From Octopus vulgaris (Eukaryota), in the NCBI GenBank assembly GCA_951406725.2, contig OX597824.1:44330001-44394000 (forward strand): a stretch of DNA of 64,000 nt. The letters are read 5' to 3'. Both the position numbers and the translations under genes were made by a program. Below the pieces are notes generated by a model. That model searched no databases. It was not told the DNA's origin and saw nothing but the letters and a program-made list of their open reading frames with translations. Below, one piece after another: positions 4,573 through 37,541 of the stretch; position 1 is the first letter of the stretch; each line of letters starts with the position of its first letter.

Positions 4573-4695
4573 ACATAATATATATATGCATATTATGTGT
4601 GTGTATGTGTATCAGTATGTATGTGTGTGTGTATGTATATATAAATGTAAATATGTGTGCGTGTGTATTTATATATATATAATTTATATATATAT

Positions 4696-6117
4696 TACAG
4701 AGGCATCAAGCTGCTGGATCAGGTAATGAAGGTTACGGAGAGGGTTATAGCCCAACTAATTAGAGAGAGTGTTAGCTTAGATGATATGCAGTTTGGGTTC
4801 GTGCCAGGGAAAAGTACTACTGATGCTATATTCCTGGTAAGACAGCTGCAGGAGAAATACCTAGCCAAAGACAAGCCCTTGTACCTGGCTTTTGTTGACT
4901 TGGAGAAAGCCTTTGACAGGGTCCCCCGATCCCTTATCTGGTGGTCAATGAGGAAACTAGGGATAGATGAATGGTTAGTGAGAGCTGTGCAAGCCATGTA
5001 CAGAGACACTGCTAGTAAGGTGAGGGTTGGCAACGAGTACAGTGAAGAATTCCGGGTAGAGGTTGGGGTCCACCAAGGTTCAGTCCTCAGTCCCCTCCTA
5101 TTTATCATAGTCCTCCAGGCAATAACGGAGGAATTCAAGACAGGATGCCCCTGGGAGCTCCTCTATGCTGACGACCTTGCTCTAATTGCTGAGTCACTAT
5201 CAGAACTGGAGGAGAAGTTTCAGGTGTGGAAACAAGGATTAGAATCGAAGGGCCTTAGAATCAACCTAGCCAAAACCAAAGTCCTAATAAGTAGGAAGGT
5301 GGACCAATCACAAACGACTTCAGGTAGATGGCCCTGCTCGATCTGTAAAAAAGGTGTAGGTAGAAACTCTATAAGGTGCACCAAGTGTAAGCTATGGACA
5401 CATAAGAGGTGCAGCAATGTCAAAGGAAGGCTAACTAGGAAAATAGTTTTTGTCTCTGGCAGATGCTCAGGAGCAATAAACACTGGAAATGTGCAGAGAC
5501 CAACTTCTACCACGTTCCAGGGAGACAAACTAGAAGTAGTTGATAGCTTCCGCTACCTAGGAGACCAAGTCAGTAGCGGGGGTGGGTGTGCTGAAAGTGT
5601 AACTGCTAGAGTAAGAATAGCTTGGGCAAAGTTTAGAGAGCTCTTACCCCTGCTGGTGACAAAAGGCCTCTCGCTCAGAGTAAAAGGCAGACTGTATGAT
5701 GCATGTGTACGTACAGCCATGCTACATGGTAGTGAAACATGGGCCGTGACTGCTGAGGATATGCGTAAGCTTGCAAGAAATGAAGCCAGTATGCTCCGAT
5801 GGATGTGTAATGCCAGTGTTCATAATCGTCAGAGTGTAAGTACCTTGAGAGAAAAGTTGAACCTAAGAAGCGTCAATTGTGGTGTGCAAGAGAGACGGCT
5901 GCGCTGGTATGGTCATGTGACGAGAATGGCTGTAGATAGTTGTGTGCAAAAGTGCTACACCCTAGCAGTTGAGGGAACCTGTGGAAGAGGTAGACCCAGG
6001 AAAACCTGGGACGAGGTGGTGAAGCACGACCTTCAAACTTTAGGTCTCACCAAGGAAATGACTAGAGACCGAGACCTATGGAAGTATGCTGCGCGTGAGA
6101 AGACCCGGCAAGAGTAG
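4696..6117 (+). pseudogene. RTE reverse transcriptase C-terminal ORF (no stops, but 5'-truncated with no endonuclease or start)
   Basis: YRGIKLL, QFGFVPGKSTTDAIF, AFVDLEKAFDRV, GVHQGSVLSPLLF, LLYADD, FRYLG, RRLRWYGHV and RGRPRKTW. Confidence 0.92.
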
Positions 6118-8500
6118 TCAGGCCATAACCCGTGGCCCCTACCTGGGACGTAGTCAGTTCACCTGTGCATACCTCCCTTCTTGTGACACTTGTGAAGACC
6201 TGTTGAGGCAAGTGAAAATCAAATCAAAAAAAAAAAAAAAAATCAAAAAATCAAAACAAATCGAAATAGATGAATATCAATGGAATTTGTATCTTTGTGG
6301 TACCAGTGCCGGTGGCACACAAGAAAACCATCCGAACGTGGCCGTAGCCAGTACTGCATCGACTGGCCTCCGTGCTGTGGGCACGTAACAAACACCATCC
6401 GATCGTGGCCGTTCGCCAGCCTCATCCGGCACCTGTGTCGGTGGCACATAAAAACACCATCCGAAGACCCGGCAAGACTAGTCAGGCCATAACCCGTGGC
6501 CCCTACCTGGGACATAGTCAGTCCGCCTGTGCATACCTTCCTTCCAGGCCATAACCCGTGGCCCCTACCTGGGACGTAGTCAGTCCGCCTGTGCATACCT
6601 TCCTTCTTGTGACACTTGTGAAGACCTGTTGAGGCAAGTGATCAAATCAAAACAAATCAAAATAGATGAACATCAATGGAATTTGTATCTTTGTGGTACC
6701 AGGGCCGGTGGCACACAAGATAACCATCCGAACATGGCCGTAGCCAGTACCGCATCGACTGGCCTCTGTGCTGTGGGCTCATAACAAACACCATCCGATC
6801 GTGGCCGTTCGCCAGCCTCATCTGGCACTTGTGTCGGTGGCACATAAAAGCACCATCCGAAGACCCGGCAAGACTAGGCACCTGTGTCGGTGGCACATAA
6901 AAACACCATCCGAAGACCCGGCAAGACTAGTCAGGCCATAACCCGTGGCCCCTAACCTGGGACGTAGTCAGTCCACCTGTGCATACCTTGCATACTCCTT
7001 CTTGTGACACTTGTGAAGACCTTTTGAGGCAAGTGAAAGTGAAAATCAAAATAAAATAGATGAACATCAATGGAATTTGTATCTTTATGGTACCAGTGCC
7101 GGTGGCACACAAGAAAACAATCCGAACGTGGCCGTAGCCAGTACCGCATCGACTGGCCTCCGTGCTGTGGGCACGTAACAAACACCATCCGATCATGTCC
7201 GTTCGCCAGCCTCATCAGGCACCTGTGTCGGTGGCACATAAAAACACCATCTGAAGACCCGGCAAGACTAGTCAGGCCATAACCCGTGGCCCCTACCTGG
7301 GACATAGTCAGTCCGCCTGTGCATACCTTCCTTCCAGGCCATAACCCGTGGCCCCTACCTGGGACGTAGTCAGTCCGCCTGTGCATACCTTCCTTCTTGT
7401 GACACTTGTGAAGACCTGTTGAGGCAAGTGATCAAATCAAAACAAATCAAAATAGATGAACATCAATGGAATTTGTATCTTTGTGGTACCAGGGCCGGTG
7501 GCACACAAGATAACCATCCGAACATGGCCGTAGCCAGTACCGCATCGACTGGCCTCTGTGCTGTGGGCTCATAACAAACACCATCCGATCGTGGCCGTTC
7601 GCCAGCCTCATCTGGCACTTGTGTCGGTGGCACATAAAAGCACCATCCGAAGACCCGGCAAGACTAGTCAGGCCATAACCGTGGCCCTACCTGGGACGTA
7701 GTCAGTCCACCTGTGCATACCTTTCTTGTGACACTTGTGAAGACCTGTTGAGCAAGTGAAATAAAATCAAATAAAATAGATGACATCAATGGAATTTGTA
7801 TCTTTTTACCATGCGGTGGCACACAAGAAAACCATCCGAACTGGCCGTCCAGTACCGCATCGATGGCCCGGTGGGATAAAACCCATCGTACTTCGGCACC
7901 TTGTGGCACATAAAGACCCATCCGAAGACCTGGCAAGACTAGTCAGGCCATAACCCGTGGCCCCTAACTGGGACGTAGTCAGTTCACCTGTGCATACCTC
8001 CCTTCTTGTGAAACTTGTGAAGACCTGTTGAGGCAAGTGAAAATCAAATCAAAAAAAAAAAAAAAAATCAAAAAATCTAAACAAATCGAAATAGATGAAT
8101 ATCAATGGAATTTGTATCTTTGTGGTACCAGTGCCGGTGACACACAAGAAAACCATCCGAACGTGGCCGTAGCCAGTACTGCATCGACTGGCCTCCGTGC
8201 TGTTAGGCACCTGTGTCAGTGGCACATAAAAACACCATCCGTGAAGACCTTTTGAGGCAAGTGAAAGTGAAAATCAAAATAAAATAGATGAACATCAATG
8301 GAATTTGTATCTTTATGGTACCAGTGCCGGTGGGACACAAGAAAACAATCCGAACGTGGCCGTAGCCAGTACCGCATCGACTGGCCTCCGTGCTGTGGGC
8401 ACGTAACAAACACCATCCGATCATGTCCGTTCGCCAGCCTCATCAGGCACCTGTGTCGGTGGCACATAAAAACACCATCTGAAGACCCGGCAAGACTAGT
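6098..8500 (+). repeat. tandem array of ~7-8 copies of a ~280-400 bp RTE 3'UTR segment
   Basis: gaagacc(c/t)ggcaagactag recurs at about 6098, 6463, 6859, 6912, 7253, 7639, 7924 and 8481. Confidence 0.9.
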
Positions 8501-9055
8501 CAGGCCATAACCCGTGGCCTCTACTTGGGACGTAGTCAGTCCACCTGTGCATACCTTCCTTCTTGTGACACTTGTGAAGACCTGTTGAGACAAGTGATCA
8601 AATCAAATCAAATCAAATCAAAATAGATGAACATCAATGGAATTTGTATCTTTGTGGTACCAGTGCCGGTGGCACACAAGAAAACCATCCGAACGTGGCC
8701 GTAGCCAGTACCGCATCGACTGGCCTCCGTGCTGTGGGCACGTAAGAAACACCATCCGATCGTGGCCGTTCGTCAGCCTCGTCTGGCACCTGTGTTGGTG
8801 GCACATAAAAACACCATCCGAGCGTGGCCGTTCGCCAGCCTCGTCTGGCACCTGTGTCGGTGGCACATAAAATCACCCACTACACTCTCGGAGTGGTTGG
8901 CGTTAGGAAGGGCATCCAGCTGTAGAAACACTGCCAGATCTGACTGGCCTGGTGCAGCCTTCGGGCTCCCCAGACCCCAGTTGAACCGTCTAACCCATGC
9001 TAGCATGGAAAGCGGACGTTAAATGATGATGATGATGATGATGATGATATAATAT

Positions 9056-10861
9056 TTGGCAACGAGTACAGTGAAGAATTCCGGGTAGAGGTTGGGGTCC
9101 ACCAAGGTTCAGTCCTCAGTCCCCTCCTATTCATCATAGTCCTCCAGGCAATAACGGAGGAATTCAAGATAGGATGCCCCTGGGAGCTCCTCTATGCTGA
9201 TGACCTTGCTCTAAGTGCTGAGTCACAATCAGAACTGGAGGAGAAGTTTCAGGTGTGGAAGCAAGGATTAGAATCGAAGGGCCTTAGAATCAACCTAGCC
9301 AAAACCAAAGTCCTAATAAGTAGGACGGTAGACCAATCACAAATGCCTTCAGGTAGATGGCCCTGCTCGATCTGTAAAAAAGGTGTAGGTAGAAACTCTA
9401 TAAGGTGCACCAAGTGTAAGCTATGGACACATAAGAGGTGCAGCAATGTCAAAGGAAGGCTAACTAGGAATATAGTTTTTGTCTGTGGCAGATGCTCAGG
9501 AGCAATAAACACTGAAAATGTGCAGAGACCAACTTCTACCACGTTCCAGGGAGAAAAACTAGAAGTAGTTGATAGCTTCTGCTACCTAGGTGACCAAGTC
9601 AGTAGTGGGGGTGGGTGTGCTGAAAGTGTAACTGCTAGAGTAAGAATAGCCTGGGCAAAGTTTAGAGAGCTCTTACCCATGCTGGTGACAAAAGGCCTCT
9701 CGCTCAGAGTAAAAGGCAGACTGTATGATGCATGTGTACGTACAGCCATGCTACATGGTAGTGAAACATGGGCTGTGACTGCTGAGGATATGCGTTAGAT
9801 CGCAAGAAATGAAGCTAGTATGCTCTGATGGATGTGTAATGTCAGTGTTCATAATCGACTGAATGTAAGTACCTTGAGAGAAAAGTTGGACCTAAGAAGC
9901 ATCAGTTGTGGTGTGCAAGAGAGACGTTTGCGCTGGTATGGTCATGTGATGAGAATGGCTGAAGATAGTTGCGTGCAAAAGTGCCACACCCTAGCAGTTG
10001 AGGGAACCTGTGGAAGAGGTAGACCCAGGAAAACCTGGGACGAGGTGGTGAAGCACGAATTTTGAACTTTAGGTCTCACTAAGGAAATGACTAGAGACCG
10101 AGACCTATGGAAGTATGCTGTGCATGAGAAGACCCGGCAAGACTAGTGAGACCATAACCCGTGGCCTCTACCTGGTATGTAGCCAGTCGACTTATACATA
10201 CCTTTCCTTCTTGGGACACATAACTCTACTTGTGAAGACCCGTTGAGGCAAGTGAAAATCAAAATCAAACCAAATCAAATCAGGTATCAGAAAGCAGAAC
10301 CAAAATTGAAGTCGATCAACATCAATGGAAATTGCAGCTGTGATACCAGTGCTGGTGACAAGTAAGCGAACCATCCGATCGTGGCCGTTGCCAGCGCCGC
10401 CCCGACTGGCCTCCGTGCCGGTGGCACGTAAAAAGCACCATCCGTTCGTGGCCGTTGCCAGCCTCGCCTGGCCCCCGTGCCGGTGGCACATAAAACGCGA
10501 CATCCATTTGTGGCCGTTGCCAGCCTCGCCTGGTCCCCGTGCCGGTGGCATGTAAAAAGCACCATCCGATCGTGGCCATTGCCAGCCTCGCCTGGCCCCC
10601 CGTGCCGGTGGCACGTAAAAACCACCATCCGTCCATGGCCATTTGCCAGCTCTGTCTGGCACCTGTGCATGTGGCACGTAAAAAGCACCCACTACACTCA
10701 CGGAGTGGTTGGCGTTAGGAAGGGCATCCAGCCGTAGAAACACTGCCAGATCAGACTGGGCCTGATGCAGCCTTCTGGCTTCACAGACCCCAGTTGAACC
10801 GTCCAACCCATGCTAGTATGGAAAGCGGACACTAAATGATGATGATGATGATGATGATGAT
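9056..10861 (+). mobile_element. 5'-truncated RTE LINE, copy 2, with in-frame stops and (GAT)n tail
   Basis: Coding part near-identical to 5027-6117, with stops at ~9796, ~9826 and ~10063. Its 3'UTR has ~63-bp subrepeats. Confidence 0.92.
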
Positions 10862-10943
10862 AATTGTTAAAGAGGACAAAAAATATTAAGGCAAGGAAAA
10901 AACATCTCAAGTTGTATACAATATTATTATTGGTAAAAATTCA

Positions 10944-11009
10944 GTCTTACAGCTGTTTCTGGGATATCCCCAAGTATGGGATATTCCGGGATATCCCGTC
11001 ATCAGAGAC
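10944..11009 (-). ncRNA. type I hammerhead ribozyme motif, intact core
   Basis: Minus strand: gtct CTGATGA cgggatatcccggaatatcccatacttggggatatccca GAAA cagctg TA agac. Confidence 0.8.
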
Positions 11010-11517
11010 AAATCAGAAAAAATAGGGAATATAGGGAAAATGAGAATGGTATATATTAATCAGACGACGACATAGAGAAAGGGTAAAAAAGAATAAGGAG
11101 ATGGAAAGCAAGAAGAAAAAAAAAGCATAAAAGTTCATAGTTCAACTTTCTGATGCAATAGAAGCAAGAGCATAAGTCATTAGGTTCAATCTTTTTGTAG
11201 ACCTATGAATGTAAGTCCTTAAGTGAAATCTTGCATAGATCCATATGGGTTAAAATTCTGATGTAGTAGACATCCATTCTGTTATTGAACATTGATATGT
11301 TCGCATCTTTTTTCTCTGTATGTCTACTATATCAGGATTTTAACCCACACAGTATGCACCTAAGGACTTATTCTCTTACTTCTGTAGTATCGGAAAGTTG
11401 AACATTTATGCTTCTTTTTTCTTCTTTCTTTCCATCTCCTTATTCTTTTACCCCCTTCCTCTATGTTGTCCCCTCATTAATATATACCATTCTCATTTTC
11501 CCTATTTTTCCATACTT

Positions 11518-11573
11518 GTCTCTGATGATGGAATATCCCATACTCAGGGATATCCCAGAAACAGCTATGAGAC
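11518..11573 (+). ncRNA. hammerhead motif with mutated cleavage triplet
   Basis: gtct CTGATGA tggaatatccc...gggatatccca GAAA cagcta TG agac. Confidence 0.65.
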
Positions 11574-12032
11574 TTTGAATTTTTTCCAATAATAATATTG
11601 TATACGACTTGAGATGTTTTACTTGCTTTAATGTTTGTTGTCCTCTTTAACAATTATATATCCGCTGCATTACCTCCATACTTTGTGTATATATATATAA
11701 TTCAAAGAGAGTTAGAGGTTGTGAATCCAACCAACTAAAGGATAGTATCTATCCAATATACTGCTGGTAGAATATCCAGTTAATACACAAGTGTTGGTTA
11801 TTGGATGGAAATTACACTACTGAGTATAATAACTAGGCGAGGGTAATAAGTGGTTTTACCCTTAATTTATATGGCAAGAAGAAAATGGAGGGAATCCAGA
11901 GGTAGTATTCATCAGCTGTTAGTCATTATATTATGTCCATTTATTTATTTGAAACAGTTCTGATAATATATATATATATATATACATATATAATGTACTA
12001 GTAATTTCTAAAATAGAGAAAGAAGAGCAGTT

Positions 12033-12168
12033 TCTTACAGCTGTTTCTGTCAAGAGGTCACAGTACTCCACATATTATTTCCCTCTTTTCAGTGTACTGT
12101 AGTGTGTACTGTAGTGAGTGGTAGATAAAATTAGGGTGCTCGGGTGTGCCTCTAGGCTTCATCAGAGA
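12033..12168 (-). ncRNA. hammerhead motif with very long (~110 nt) stem II region
   Basis: Minus strand: tct CTGATGA agcc...ttgaca GAAA cagctg TA aga. A paralogue at 18121-18244 has core CTGACAA. Confidence 0.55.
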
Positions 12169-12239
12169 GTTTTATAAGATAGTCCAAGAAGTTCAGAGGG
12201 CTAATTTATGCATATATAAATATATTTCATGAACTGTCA

Positions 12240-13640
12240 CAATTACTCGGAATACAGCATATTCACACCACAAGCTACTGACCCATTGTGAATGGAATAG
12301 TAGAGCGTTTTCATAGACAGCTAAAAGATGTGATCCATGTTGCTCCTGAACCCCACTGTTGGTCAGTATTCCTTCCCATTGTTCTACTAGGCTGCCATTC
12401 AGCCATCAAAGCAGATTTTGGATACTTTTCTACCAAACTCTTGTATGGCACCACTTTGGCACTACCTGGTCAAATTCCCATTGGGAAAGCTGACCCAACT
12501 TCATATATCACTCAACTTAGATCCTTCTTTGTGGACCTACCTCCAATGTTGTCTAGACAACAGTCTATACCTTCTGCGGTTCCTTCTGATATATTCACAT
12601 GGATGTGTGTGTCTATTCGGAATGATTCTGTTAAGGGTCCATTGACACTGCCTTATTCTGGTCCTTACCATGTAATTAAGTGCACAGAGAAACTGTTTAC
12701 TGTAGATATGAATTGAAAAGATATAACTGTCTCTGTCGACAGAGTTAAAAAAAAGCATTCACCAAAATGGATATACCTTTCTTTCCATGGACATTTTCAT
12801 GCCCACCACTACAACAAGTACCTACACCCAATAAAATAAACAAATTGCAAAGACTCCACACTAACCTCAACATGTTCGGGCAGGTTGGTATATTGGCTGA
12901 AAAGACTATCAAAAACAATTTTTATATGACTTTCTGCCTCACGTTATCTGTTACGGTGACACTCATGTTTTCCAATTTCACATTCTTGTTACAAAAACAA
13001 AAAGAATGCACACAGACATCTATATATATATGTCCACATTACACACACACATACTGTTTGCCATGCGTCACATAGATCCATACAGTTGTATATATGTCCA
13101 CAAGCATCACACACACACTGTTGCTTTCCTTTTGTATGCCTTTTGCATTTACTTTTGTTATTTGTGCATGCAGATTTTTTCTCAAAGTTTTTTGTCTTTT
13201 TCACATTGTACACATTTCTCCCACAGTTGCCTCTTTGCAATCTCTGTGTGTTTGTATTCCCTTAACTTTCCGTCCACCATTCATTATTTCCAACTTCAAG
13301 TCTTGCTGGCGGGGGGTGGAGCATGGAGACAGTAACCTCCTTTGAAACCAGTTGTTTCATTCATTGGCCACTGGATGGCACACATCATGGTGTTGCATTG
13401 TGGGAGAATTAAATCTATAGCTTTTGGATGATGCAACCATAGTGATTAGACGTATTTTCTTCCTGCTGTGATTCCAAGTGATGTAACAGTCAAACATAAC
13501 CACCTCTTGTATATGAATATGAATGCACAGAAACTGTCTTTATCTCTTTCTATACAAATACTGTAATTTGCATGCAGTATCAAGATTAAAACGACTTACA
13601 GCTGTATTTGCAAATTCTTATTGTCTTTTTATTCTTATAG
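12240..13640 (+). mobile_element. Gypsy LTR retrotransposon 3' fragment (integrase C-terminus, PPT, LTR)
   Basis: NGIVERFHRQLKD...LLYGTTLALPG...PYSGPYHV (GPY/F motif). A purine tract ggggggtggagca is followed by TG at 13324. LTR end is approximate. Confidence 0.8.
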
Positions 13641-15072: not shown

Positions 15073-15249
15073 CAAACTATTATTAATATTGCTAATTCTA
15101 TCCCTCTTGTTTTAATTCACAGAATATAAAGAACACATTGCAGGAATTGGAGAGGGAGGACAGAAAGAGCCAAGTCTCAAATCAAGCCAAGAAGGTGGTA
15201 TGCTAGTAGGGTTAGAGGCATAGAAGGAGGGAATCAATTATCAATTATA

Positions 15250-16861: not shown

Positions 16862-17323
16862 AAAATTTAAAGAAAACAGAAAATGGGGATAGTATTTATA
16901 AACAACAATTTATTTGCATCAATTATTATTTATTAATTATTTACAAAATGACTGCATCCCATTTAGCAGTTGTTCCTGTTGCCAATGTTCTTTGGTATCA
17001 CCATTATTATGCTAAAAATATATATCATAGTTGGTAATAAAACCGATTTGAATCATGGAGCATGATCAGAGTGGAAAATAAGTAAACAGATAAAAAGAAG
17101 GGACAAGAAAAGAAGACAGAAAAGTTGAATATTGTGAGAATCAAGTCATGTTGTGTGTGTACGATATATATTTTTAGCATAATAATGGTGATACTAAAGA
17201 ACATTGGCGGCAGAAACAGCTGTTAGATGAGATGCAGTCTTTTTGTAAATAATAAATAATAATTGATTCAAATCAATTGTTGTTCATCAATGTTATCTCC
17301 ATTTTCTGTTTTCTTTAAATTTT
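16862..17323. repeat. foldback element, ~165-bp arms, decayed hammerhead-like motif
   Basis: Arms aaaatttaaagaaaacagaaaatgg / ccattttctgttttctttaaatttt. Right arm carries CTAAAGA...GAAA cagctg TT agat. Confidence 0.6.
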
Positions 17324-17553: not shown

Positions 17554-17771
17554 GCAAGAAGAAAGTAGAGGGAATCCAGAGGTAGTATTCCTCAGCTGTT
17601 AGACATTATATTATGTCTATTTATTTATTTAAAACAGTTCTGATAATATATATATATATATATATATATAAGTTCAGCAAAATTTAGATTCAAATGAATA
17701 TGGTACTTAAGTTAGATGCACCAGAATTTTGTATGGTGTTATCCACATAAATCCATGGGGTGATTATAATC

Positions 17772-18034
17772 AAAAATAAGCAACAAGAATAACTTCGGTA
17801 ATTTGGTACGATCATTTCCCGCTACATCATTTTATTAAATATTGTAAGTATTACAACAGTTTAAAATATTGAGCAATCATCAGCCATTTATAGAGGTATT
17901 AATGGAAAACCTCTATAAATGGCTGATGATTGCTCAACATTTTAAAACTGTTGTAATATTCACAATATTTAATAAAATGATGTAGCGTGAAACAATCGTA
18001 CCAAATTACCGAAGTTATTCTTGTTGCTTATTTT

Positions 18035-18035
<1 letters not shown>
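17772..18035. repeat. near-perfect palindrome with hammerhead motifs in both arms
   Basis: Plus 17920-18003: tgg CTGATGA [59 nt] GAAA caatcg TA cca. The minus arm has GAAA tgatcg TA cca, so the inferred consensus stem III is cgatcg. Confidence 0.7.
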
Positions 18036-18075
<40 letters not shown>

Positions 18076-18317
18076 GTGTAAACTACTAGTAATTTCTAGA
18101 ATGGAGAAGGAAGAGCAGTTTCTTACAGCTGTTTCTGCCAAGAGGTCACAGTACTCCACATATTATTTCCATCTTTTCAATGTACTGTAGTGATCTGTAG
18201 ATAAAATTAAGGTACTTGGGTATACCTCTAGGTTTTGTCAGTGAGTTTATAAGGTAGTCCAAGAAGTTCAGAGGGCTAATTTATGGATAGTCAACTACAT
18301 CAATCCCAGTGCTCAAC

Positions 18318-31115: not shown

Positions 31116-34100
31116 TACATAACCTTCGATGGTGGAGGGCAGTATGTCATGCTAGATAAACAATTGAGGACTATTATTTAAGTTTTATTTATAGGCTATG
31201 TAATGGAATAAACAGATTGCATTAATAAACAGATAATGTAAAACAGATAGGAACACAGATGTATGCACATACATGAATATATACACATGTACAAATATAC
31301 AAATGCATGTACTCACAAACACAAAATACACAAAAGCAGCTATAACCACACAGGTTGTTTAAAACTAAGACATTAAGTTGAAAGTCATTGTTCCAACGAT
31401 TTACAAGCATGACACACTGAAAAGATATCAGTATAGTCAGGACTTCCACCGTGGCTTACTGCTGGAACACTGCATGAAATATGAAGTATAAGTTCAATAT
31501 TATACCAAATACATAAAATAGGGCAACTTGTTGTTTTAACCTCAAGTTAATCCTGATTGAATGCTTGATAAAAACTATTACAGGTCTGATTAAAAGTAAT
31601 CACATGCATTCCAGCCGTGACCGTCCTGTCTTATTTCAGCCTAATAAATTGAAGAGTACATTATGTAAAATATCCTTCCCTTTTTTTAAGATGGGTGTAT
31701 TTGAGGAAAATTTGTCAGCTATTTCTAGATGGTCTAGCAATCAAAAACAAATTTCCTTTATTTATGTTTTTACTAGTAAGACTGAAGAGGTGGGAAGGGG
31801 TAGGGACGGTGGTAGCACCACTGACCTTTGCATGACCTCCTAGACTAGTGTGATGTTAAGTTTGAGCATCTGTAGTTTGATATCTGTCAAAAAATGTTGT
31901 ACCAGATGTGATGCATCTGTAAGGAGAAATGATTGGGCAAATATTTAGAACAATATCTGGTGGTGGTGAGACACAGCAAGGGGAGGAGGAGATAAATAAA
32001 GGAAGAGAGGGAGACAACCTGTTAACTGGGCTTGTCTGAAATGGCTATGAAGTTAGTTGGATCAAACTGCTCAAAATGCAGGAAACCAAAAAGATGGAAA
32101 AAGTCTTATAATTAAAGGATGCAAGCATGTTATATCTGATAGTACATAAACTCATTCCCACATGCATGATTAATTTTACAAAATGTAAATGAAAAAGCAT
32201 TACATCTGAATGCCAGCTGATAATTGTGGTAATTATGACTATCCTACAGTAAGGTACATTTTATTTGTTATATGTTTTAGCTTGAGACTTAGTCAATGTA
32301 AATGGATTCTACATTGGTCTCAATGATAAGTATTTAAGTTATTAGATCAATTGAATGCCTTACCCATTAAGTTATAGGTGTAAATAACTGAGTAGTCCAT
32401 ATACAGAACTGTATGGCCCTTTGAATTGTAAATATTGTCTACCCAATTTCACTCAAAAGGTTTAATTTGAGTAAAAACTATGAAGAACTTGCCAAAGAGA
32501 CCCCCACAGAGAATCAAATGAAGTCATTTCATGTCTGTGGAAAAAGCTTTTTAACCACCTGGCCATACTTGCACACCGAGTCAGTACAAAACGGATACAA
32601 AACATTTGCCAACTCTTTGGTTAGGCCAGTAGTCAAATTGCCCATCAATTTAGTCATTGCAGCTTGTTAAAATTCACATAATTTCAATTATATAGCAACT
32701 GATTATCAAGAATATTTTATATATTTAATAATCTTCAAGTATGTGTTGTATTTTCATTGAAAATGATTCTTTGTATTCTAGAGCTGGTTGGAATAGTTCT
32801 AACCATATAAACATAATTTTAACATTTCTTTCTTTATTCTCTTAAAAATATTCTATTATCTCAATAAACAGTCTTAGATCAACTTTTCAGCAATATTTGG
32901 GAAGTGAGTTAGCTGTTTAACTGGAATCAGAAGGTTTCAACATTTGATAGCTCTATCAAACATCAGGCAATTCACAAACTGGTTAGAATGACAAGAAAGA
33001 ACATTTTCAATATACTTTTCTTGCCAAACTATCTTGAAAAACAAGTTGATGTTTGCTGAACACATTGCAATCCTAACAACAGAAACGTTTTATTGTAACT
33101 TCAGTATGCTTGTCAGACTTATACATCACAAATAGAAAACAAAATTCTGTTGAATATTCATTATGCAAAAGTAATGTTAGATCATTTCTGTATTCAATAA
33201 CTTTGGTAATACCATCAGTATTTCACCTCTCTAAAAAACAAAAAAAAAGCAGATAAATATGTGTGATTTTTTTATTTGTCATTCAGCTGAATCTAAAATC
33301 TGCCTTCACAAAATATCCCTTCAAAAATAACTATTTTTGGCCTCAGTATGCATTCTGATTTCTGAACTAAAATAGATAGGTATTCATGACCTCATTGCAT
33401 ATCTTGGCTAATTAGACCAGAAGATAATACCTCCACCCACTAGCGCAATAAAAAAAGTGATGGATCCTGTTTTGAAATGCAGTGCTGTGATGTATAAAAC
33501 TTACATACAAAATACAGGAGTTTTCAATTACAGTATACCATTTTCTGATCAATGTTGAATGAACAAAAAGTAAATGTATTTCACATAATAAAATATATAT
33601 ACATAAAACACTGTAATTAACTAATGGCAACTTCATGAGCAAATTATGTTACTACTATGAGTGGACTTATATGTGTAAACAATACATATATAAGGTATGA
33701 CATTAAACTGCTATCTTGTTAGGATTCAGTTTGGGAGTTCTGAAGCTGTGGGGAGCATAAAGTTACCCCTTAATTACCATTACTCCCAGGTCCATTCTGA
33801 CCCAGAATGGAAGTGACTGTCAGGGTCCCATCTATGGGTTAATTAGATTTTTCAAGGGTAGAGGAAGCTCCTGTTATTTTTGACAAAGTCATAGAAAAGG
33901 CAGCTCTTCATAAAATTTTCTGTCAAAATAGTACCAGTTATCTTGCAATACTTATCACTGAAACCTACTATAATAACAACTGAGAGTGTCAAAAGTCATG
34001 TACAAGCTTTCTCACTTAAATCGAATGACATACAGATGTCTCACTATAATATAAAATGGCTAGCATCTGATCAAATGAGGCAATCATCATCATCAAACAG

Positions 34101-37140: not shown

Positions 37141-37541
37141 ATGAATGATAAAAAAAAAAGAGATACTGGAGGAGTCAATAACAGTTTATTATCAGCAAAA
37201 AATCAATTGTTATCCCTTACAGCTGTTTTGATTAAGCTTAGTGAAACTAAATAAGTATTAAAATCATATTTCTTAGCTTAATCTCTTCAGAGGGAGAAAG
37301 AATATACCCTTAGATATTCTATGTGTTAGTTATTTGAATTATCACGGCTGTGAAGATTCAGATAACCAACACATAAGGGTATATTCTTTTTCCCTCTGAA
37401 GAGATTAAGCTCAGAAATATGTTTTTAATACTTATTTAATTTCACTAAGCTTAATCAAAACATCTGTAAGGGATGATGATCAATTTTTTGATAGTAATAA
37501 ACTCTTATTAACTTCAATATCACCATTTTCTTATTATTCAT
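37141..37541. repeat. foldback element with a hammerhead motif in each arm
   Basis: Plus 37391-37473: tccct CTGAAGA gattaagct...agcttaatc AAAA catctg TA aggga. The mirror copy at 37213-37295 has cagctg. Confidence 0.72.

Follow-up and report, generated by a model that had tools for sequence, protein, structure and literature searches.

Penelope-like elements (PLEs) of the Hydra clade, such as Penelope-13_HM and Hydra-1_Obim (Craig et al. 2021, PMC8557442), are defined by a CxCx5C motif, the absence of CCHH, and CxxC and CxH motifs placed around an E and an N. With the octopus family described here they have in common this nuclease signature within a C-terminal GIY-YIG domain, (TA)n targets, and a type I hammerhead near the 3' end with a near-palindromic stem III. 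In File S2 of that paper stem II commonly has an additional or mismatched base on each side, U·U in many Hydra rows and C·A in PLE-X1_cBra, and in Penelope-13_HM, which has an inverted copy truncated at its 5' end, both strands carry a hammerhead. The minimal PLE hammerheads of Cervera and de la Pena (2014, PMC4209133) likewise resemble the octopus motif in their long helix II, helix I of 4–5 bp, extra base after A9, and palindromic helix III with its requirement for a dimer. The activity data cited from that paper give no cleavage by monomers and low cleavage by dimers, and its authors attribute opposite-strand hammerhead pairs 100–700 bp apart to truncated PLEs. Elements with an inverted pLTR of the Pen2a_Av type (Arkhipova et al. 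2013, PMC3846280) and PAc (Frangieh et al. 2024, PMC11167929) share with the octopus family a head-to-head inversion, a tail on one arm, microhomology junctions, Asn-rich linker inserts and AT-rich targets. In PAc both target strands are nicked and extended, two RNA start sites bound the tail, and the hammerhead, which cuts only with the element protein, is dispensable for insertion in vitro (PMC11167929). Hammerhead pairs on opposite strands, inverted copies at the 5' end whose tail is confined to one arm, and a mismatched stem II base, C·A among the variants, all have published precedents. Our literature search, with most subscription journals, Repbase and Dfam outside its scope, returned nothing on this octopus PLE family or on twin priming in PLEs.

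We analysed a 64,000-nucleotide stretch of the Octopus vulgaris genome (contig OX597824.1, positions 44,330,001 to 44,394,000), referred to below as the window. An initial annotation had placed a foldback of about 800 bp at 10860–11657, and an inverted repeat of that extent is indeed present, its arms being identical at 270 of 301 aligned columns (30 gap columns; outer 330 bases) with an inner stem of 31 bases in addition. The right limit needs moving: the insertion runs some 30 bases further, to ~11687. The foldback consists of two 5'-truncated PLE 3' ends joined 5'-to-5' through a 2-base microhomology, with the following features:

10836–10861, plus strand: left flank, the (ATG)n end of an unrelated dispersed repeat; target side of the insertion
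10860–11275, minus strand: left arm, a 5'-truncated 3' end (pLTR region) of the PLE family, family positions 73–468 of a 625-base reference, ending at the proximal site (site 1)
10944–11009, minus strand: type I hammerhead with intact catalytic letters (stem I of 4 bp, CUGAUGA, C·A mismatch, long stem II, GAAA, palindromic stem III, GUA)
10988–10997, minus strand: 10-base duplication within stem II, private to this copy, from which a second perfect GGGATATCCC palindrome arises; a gap in all other 32 aligned rows
11274–11275, unstranded: 5'-to-5' junction, with a 2-base microhomology (CC) common to both arms
11274–11687, plus strand: right arm, a second 5'-truncated copy with internal deletions, family positions 29–481, then the site 2 end
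11518–11573, plus strand: disabled hammerhead, with two substitutions, G>A at 11567 and A>G at 11569, that disrupt the palindrome of stem III and leave a triplet with G17
11658–11687, plus strand: one-sided tail, the start of the family's ~140-base extension, deletion-fused to the distal 3' end (site 2)
11688–11699, plus strand: right flank, a (TA)6 microsatellite; target side of the insertion

The right arm starts 44 bases further upstream in the family than the left arm, and the window copy of the element contains no ORF. No target-site duplication is seen at the flanks of the foldback, which, together with the longer tail, distinguishes the octopus locus from Pen2a_Av and PAc. We read the foldback as an old and likely inert insertion of a Hydra-type PLE, with two truncated 3' ends lying head to head and each carrying the family hammerhead, and we give this reading a probability of about 0.9.

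The sequence of the left arm is dispersed in the genome, with at least 52 matches from the 40 scored of 1845 first-look candidates. The initial annotation had proposed counting genome copies and checking relatives for the core; the exact core pattern has 276 matches genome-wide against none for a reversed control, and among the first 100 of these, which were inspected, a few are sister families with other stem II sequences. Judged from this recurrence, the type I hammerhead belongs to the PLE family itself, and the locus is a decayed transposon copy among hundreds to thousands. A further 51 genome-wide matches follow a sister pattern, in which stem II is shorter and GAAA is preceded by C in place of A. 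The stem III palindrome is common to several related hammerhead families, so that cross-family dimers are conceivable.

A walk upstream on the hammerhead strand crosses ~0.9 kb of non-coding sequence before it reaches a frame for a GIY-YIG nuclease, then an Asn/Thr-rich linker, and then the thumb and core motifs of a reverse transcriptase (RT). As in EN+ PLEs, the RT is followed by a C-terminal GIY-YIG domain on the strand of the hammerhead, in longer family copies that lie outside the window. Nuclease, 3' region and hammerhead follow one another on a single strand in L081, L082, L083 and L084, out of six stretches examined, and also in L085; L081 in addition has an inverted second end upstream. 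The linker is in frame between RT thumb and nuclease (L081:3714-5114; L082:3568-4320), the RT motifs MGS, YRDD and NFLDVTLDL can be read in the broken copy L086, and all six long stretches are truncated before the N-terminal RT. RWK and DKT motifs and a length under 3 kb are further traits of the Hydra clade, and the RT of EN+ PLEs is phylogenetically sister to telomerase RT. The nuclease translation from L067 contains CxCx5C in its linker, VVY..YIG, and CxxC and CxH flanking a conserved E and N, with no CCHH between GIY and YIG. Pfam places GIY-YIG below its cut-off in two of three translations (E 0.0069 and 0.086) and gives nothing relevant for the RT-thumb and linker translations. An Atlas lead of 0.95 points to a protein cluster in which 11% of the members have GIY-YIG, and a homologue search with the nuclease piece against longer proteins returned none (0 of 854 candidates scored). 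By its motifs, as opposed to a tree or a full-length copy, the family is a Hydra-type PLE. The Neptune clade, our first guess, was discarded, as it needs a CX2-5CxxC linker and CCHH, and just one Cys lies between VVY and YIG. The octopus family differs from the Hydra-clade PLEs described in PMC8557442 in its long Asn/Thr-rich linker, which resembles the Asn-rich inserts of rotifer Penelope elements (PMC3846280), in its ~0.9-kb 3' non-coding region, and in a tail of ~140 bases compared with 30–40. Its hammerhead sequence and the protein blocks displayed for comparison also differ from those of Hydra-1_Obim (PMC8557442).

Copies of the family end at two fixed points ~140 bases apart, with 37 of 75 ends at site 1, 30 at site 2 and 8 elsewhere; most of them run into (TA)n or (GT)n, judged by eye and not counted against a null, in keeping with the (TA)n preference of the Hydra clade. 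All loci and copies counted here are best-scoring matches, not a random draw. An inverted partner at the 5' end, as found in EN+ PLEs, is present in 23 of 68 non-duplicate loci (14/29 from the window query, 9/39 from upstream or nuclease queries), and the gap to the partner is within 13 bases in 21 of the 23. Two-strand loci could be classified in 20 of 24 cases, and all 20 are discordant: one arm terminates at the proximal site while its partner extends past it, reaching the distal site in 18 and stopping between the sites in 2. With its two sites ~140 bases apart and its 20/20 discordance, the family shows the optional one-arm tail of EN+ PLEs. In 7 of the 24 two-strand loci the hammerhead region is present in both arms. 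At some loci (L013, L021, L026, L032, L036, L053, L084), the inverted arm consists of the inter-site segment only and shares almost nothing with the main arm. The position of the junction differs in every inverted locus.

The minus-strand motif, a pattern matched by none of 100 shuffles, has its CUGAUGA at 11005–10999, GAAA at 10959–10956, a stem I of 4 bp and, as the initial annotation had stated, a GUA triplet (10950–10948), with the predicted cut between 10948 and 10947; its stem III palindrome is ACAGCUGU, followed by A17. It has the type I features C3–A9, G12–A14, A15.1–U16.1 and H17, of which the plus copy lacks H17. The "perfect core" first claimed for it does not hold up, because C stands opposite A (10998/10960) where the 10.1–11.1 pair belongs, so that stem II is closed by C·A. 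Hits without this pair were rejected unless active in PMC3088659. The extra A before GAAA also departs from the consensus of PMC4209133, where AGAAA occurs in 1 of the 56 rows of Fig. S3, a row that probably, though uncertainly, represents Cotesia. An A precedes GAAA in 61 of 65 octopus copies, and C·A is common to the family; the dinucleotide after A9 is CG in 34 copies, TG in 16, CA in 10 and otherwise in 5. From this alignment we take the C·A mismatch to be ancestral in the family; an ancestral U10.1–A11.1 was considered and ruled out, since TG and CA fit CpG decay. An Rfam scan gave no hammerhead family among 72 matches, up to E=1. Lunse et al. reportedly dealt with PLE hammerhead variants in 2017, and their work may describe the C·A variant core.

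The plus-strand mirror is disabled, as had been supposed: its triplet carries G17, its palindrome is broken, and the predicted free energy of stem III as an 8-bp intermolecular duplex is -4.1 kcal/mol, compared with -11.1 kcal/mol in the minus copy. Both substitutions are private to the plus copy, and in contigs of run X10 the family letters at 11567 and 11569 account for 70089 and 69863 of a summed depth of 70336, a measure of majority letters only and not of copy number. The -11.1 kcal/mol duplex also supports the annotated potential of stem III for intermolecular pairing, the palindromic stem needing a dimer to form. The same idea applied to stem II did not survive. The palindromic unit GGGATATCCC is present as reported, with two units in the minus copy and a single one in the plus copy, but it is no special feature of the motif, its doubling being private to the minus copy and absent from the other 32 rows. 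Stem II as a duplex is predicted to gain ~4 kcal/mol over two hairpins (-44.9 versus -40.6 kcal/mol), which any hairpin would allow, and a role as a special dimerisation device was rejected accordingly.

Divergence from the consensus ranges from 4.6 to 19.8% (median 8.3%) across 65 de-duplicated copies, obtained by removing 13 duplicate-locus rows from 78, and there is no young copy among them. Within the 301 aligned columns, changes private to one arm of the window foldback number 18 and 14, and another 6 differences from the consensus occur in both arms. Core and triplet are intact in 27 of the 65 copies, and in 9 of 35 picked without using the hammerhead. In this 35-copy set the core mismatches at 26/378 positions and the flank at 186/2220 once subfamily columns are left out (p=0.36); with all flank columns kept the core is somewhat better conserved, at 26/378 (6.9%) versus 258/2348 (11.0%; p=0.014). 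These figures fit constraint on past parent elements followed by neutral decay of the copies; the better conservation in the second comparison could also come from selection at the level of the copy. The contrast between an intact and a disabled arm similarly fits neutral decay, since the intact fraction is about a quarter to two fifths, at which one intact plus one broken arm is to be expected.

Three explanations compete with, or modify, this reading. The initial annotation regarded the minus-strand motif as the best candidate for a live ribozyme in the window, and one could imagine it serving the host at this locus, for example as a read-through terminator, with its mirror disabled by selection. 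All its catalytic letters and the GUA are there, the dimer with one assembled site is predicted to lie within ~4 kcal/mol of the best dimer (-55.2 versus -59.3 kcal/mol), and an XRCC3-like gene ~20 kb away on the minus strand (last coding exon 31471–31388) points at the foldback, although its coding exons end at 31388 without spanning it. The predicted folding, however, is unfavourable. Both hammerheads face outward, so transcription always reaches the antisense arm first, also in read-through from the XRCC3-like side, and this arm is predicted to pair with the core. Once a transcript starts to the right of ~11540 the core is predicted to lie in a duplex of ~300 bp and its unpaired probability to fall from 0.13 to 0.02, so that the surviving minus motif is predicted to be paired away in any read-through RNA. 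The long double-stranded RNA that had been foreseen from such a transcript is borne out in kind but not in its length of ~350 bp, the predicted long-range pairing being 296 bp for the plus and 302 bp for the minus strand. Even in short transcripts stem I reaches a probability of at most 0.04 in context and 0.15 alone, the C·A mismatch adjoins the core, and PLE hammerheads cut poorly or only with protein. The motif is part of a decayed copy in a family whose core is intact in 9/35 relatives, and copies at a median of 8% from consensus with seemingly neutral core survival make a live ribozyme unlikely here. Nor is it the sole candidate, as a second intact-core motif with a long stem II lies at 12036–12172 on the minus strand. 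Family sequence does occur in contigs of three presumed RNA runs, none of which spans the locus and which show neither ends nor strand; at a candidate exon at 15124–15199 no contig aligned in any of four runs. We consider function of the minus-strand hammerhead at this locus, and with it a host-used ribozyme, very improbable, while detectable cleavage by the isolated minus-strand RNA at high concentration and Mg2+ falls only somewhat short of an even chance.

A non-autonomous retrozyme or MITE-like unit, mobile as an 800-base hairpin or a circular RNA, would account for the missing ORF and the terminal inverted repeats, and one tandem pair of family copies exists (L009). A non-LTR retrozyme is a non-coding unit with tandem hammerheads on the same strand. 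Here the hammerheads are on opposite strands without tandem order, the family continues into a nuclease ORF, and the variable junctions argue that the hairpin is no replicated unit, the window junction at 11274/11275 having no second copy among the 52 matches from scored candidates; we rejected the retrozyme assignment, and a mobile hairpin is the most improbable of the explanations considered. More serious is a fold-back origin, in which the same element is inverted when a single cDNA primes itself or switches template, and both DNA strands need not be primed. Self-priming on an antisense template has been proposed for PLE inversions (PMC3846280), and the window arms overlap in family coordinates and share those 6 differences from the consensus; by itself, though, a fold-back leaves unexplained both the different fixed arm ends in 20/20 loci and the inverted arms limited to the inter-site segment. 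We regard it as possible but not probable.

Insertion from two nicks, as we infer it, would proceed as follows. The RT-nuclease of the element would nick both strands of an AT-rich microsatellite, and each nick would prime a cDNA; synthesis would begin at the proximal start site of the element RNA for one of these cDNAs and at the distal one for the second. Both cDNAs would halt after ~400 bases and be joined through the 2-base microhomology; after insertion both arms would drift, one of them losing its cleavage site by chance. In the active parent, published work on the class suggests that the hammerhead would cut a tandem precursor RNA weakly, as a dimer formed through the palindromic stem III or with the element protein. 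Because two nicks are primed, each site yields one cDNA and the joint is made by microhomology, this scheme would explain the outward 3' ends, the one-sided tail and the inverted arms limited to the inter-site segment. The overlapping arms at the window locus would require two templates or strand displacement. We tentatively extend the two-nick scheme to a coupled rule, which has perhaps the same modest chance as a fold-back: one PLE complex would prime both nicked strands, always starting one cDNA at the proximal site and its counterpart at the distal one, and would likely be loaded with two RNAs where both arms cover the hammerhead, possibly held together by the stem III palindrome. PAc, a member of the Poseidon clade, has its start site used alike on both strands in the in vitro data cited from PMC11167929, which lend coupling within an insertion no support.

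Other hammerhead-bearing repeats lie in the window. A distinct (TA)n-flanked element of ~220 bases is found at 12005–12225 on the minus strand, with an intact core, and again at ~18085–18290, with 364 first-look candidates; it has the same core and stem III palindrome as the PLE family and a branched stem II domain of ~99 bases, and in 5 of 13 aligned copies U replaces A before GAAA, giving an A–U closing pair. No ORF was seen upstream of it in 11 loci. A foldback at 37145–37541 has outward hammerhead-like motifs on both strands with the same stem III palindrome, and G12 is A in both arms. Two more, at 17765–18042 and 16921–17268, occupy (TA)-rich sites and contain hammerhead-like half cores, those at 17765–18042 being similar to motifs of the Hydra clade in which stem II has an extra U on either side. 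The window further includes the last coding exons of the XRCC3-like DNA repair gene (61853–61581, 53640–53470 and 31471–31388, minus strand), truncated RT frames of a non-LTR retrotransposon at 4651–6117 (RVT_1, E 1e-31) and 9004–9798, tandem arrays following these frames (396-base at 6248–8877; 62-base at 10370–10689), and a frame at 12282–12716 that by eye resembles the integrase remnant of an LTR retrotransposon and has no Pfam match.

The locus itself is transposon debris and of little import. The family to which it belongs is an octopus Hydra-type PLE unlike the single octopus Hydra entry displayed in PMC8557442, and its C·A-closed hammerhead escapes strict descriptors as well as Rfam. 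The discordance of arm ends in 20/20 loci supplies a specific prediction, drawn from genomic data, that the existing in vitro PLE system can address, and it bears on how PLEs make inverted ends and on what PLE hammerheads do. If coupled two-site priming is true, the main job of the hammerhead would be to pair templates and not to cut, and the unusually long 140-base tail would make this family a good test substrate.
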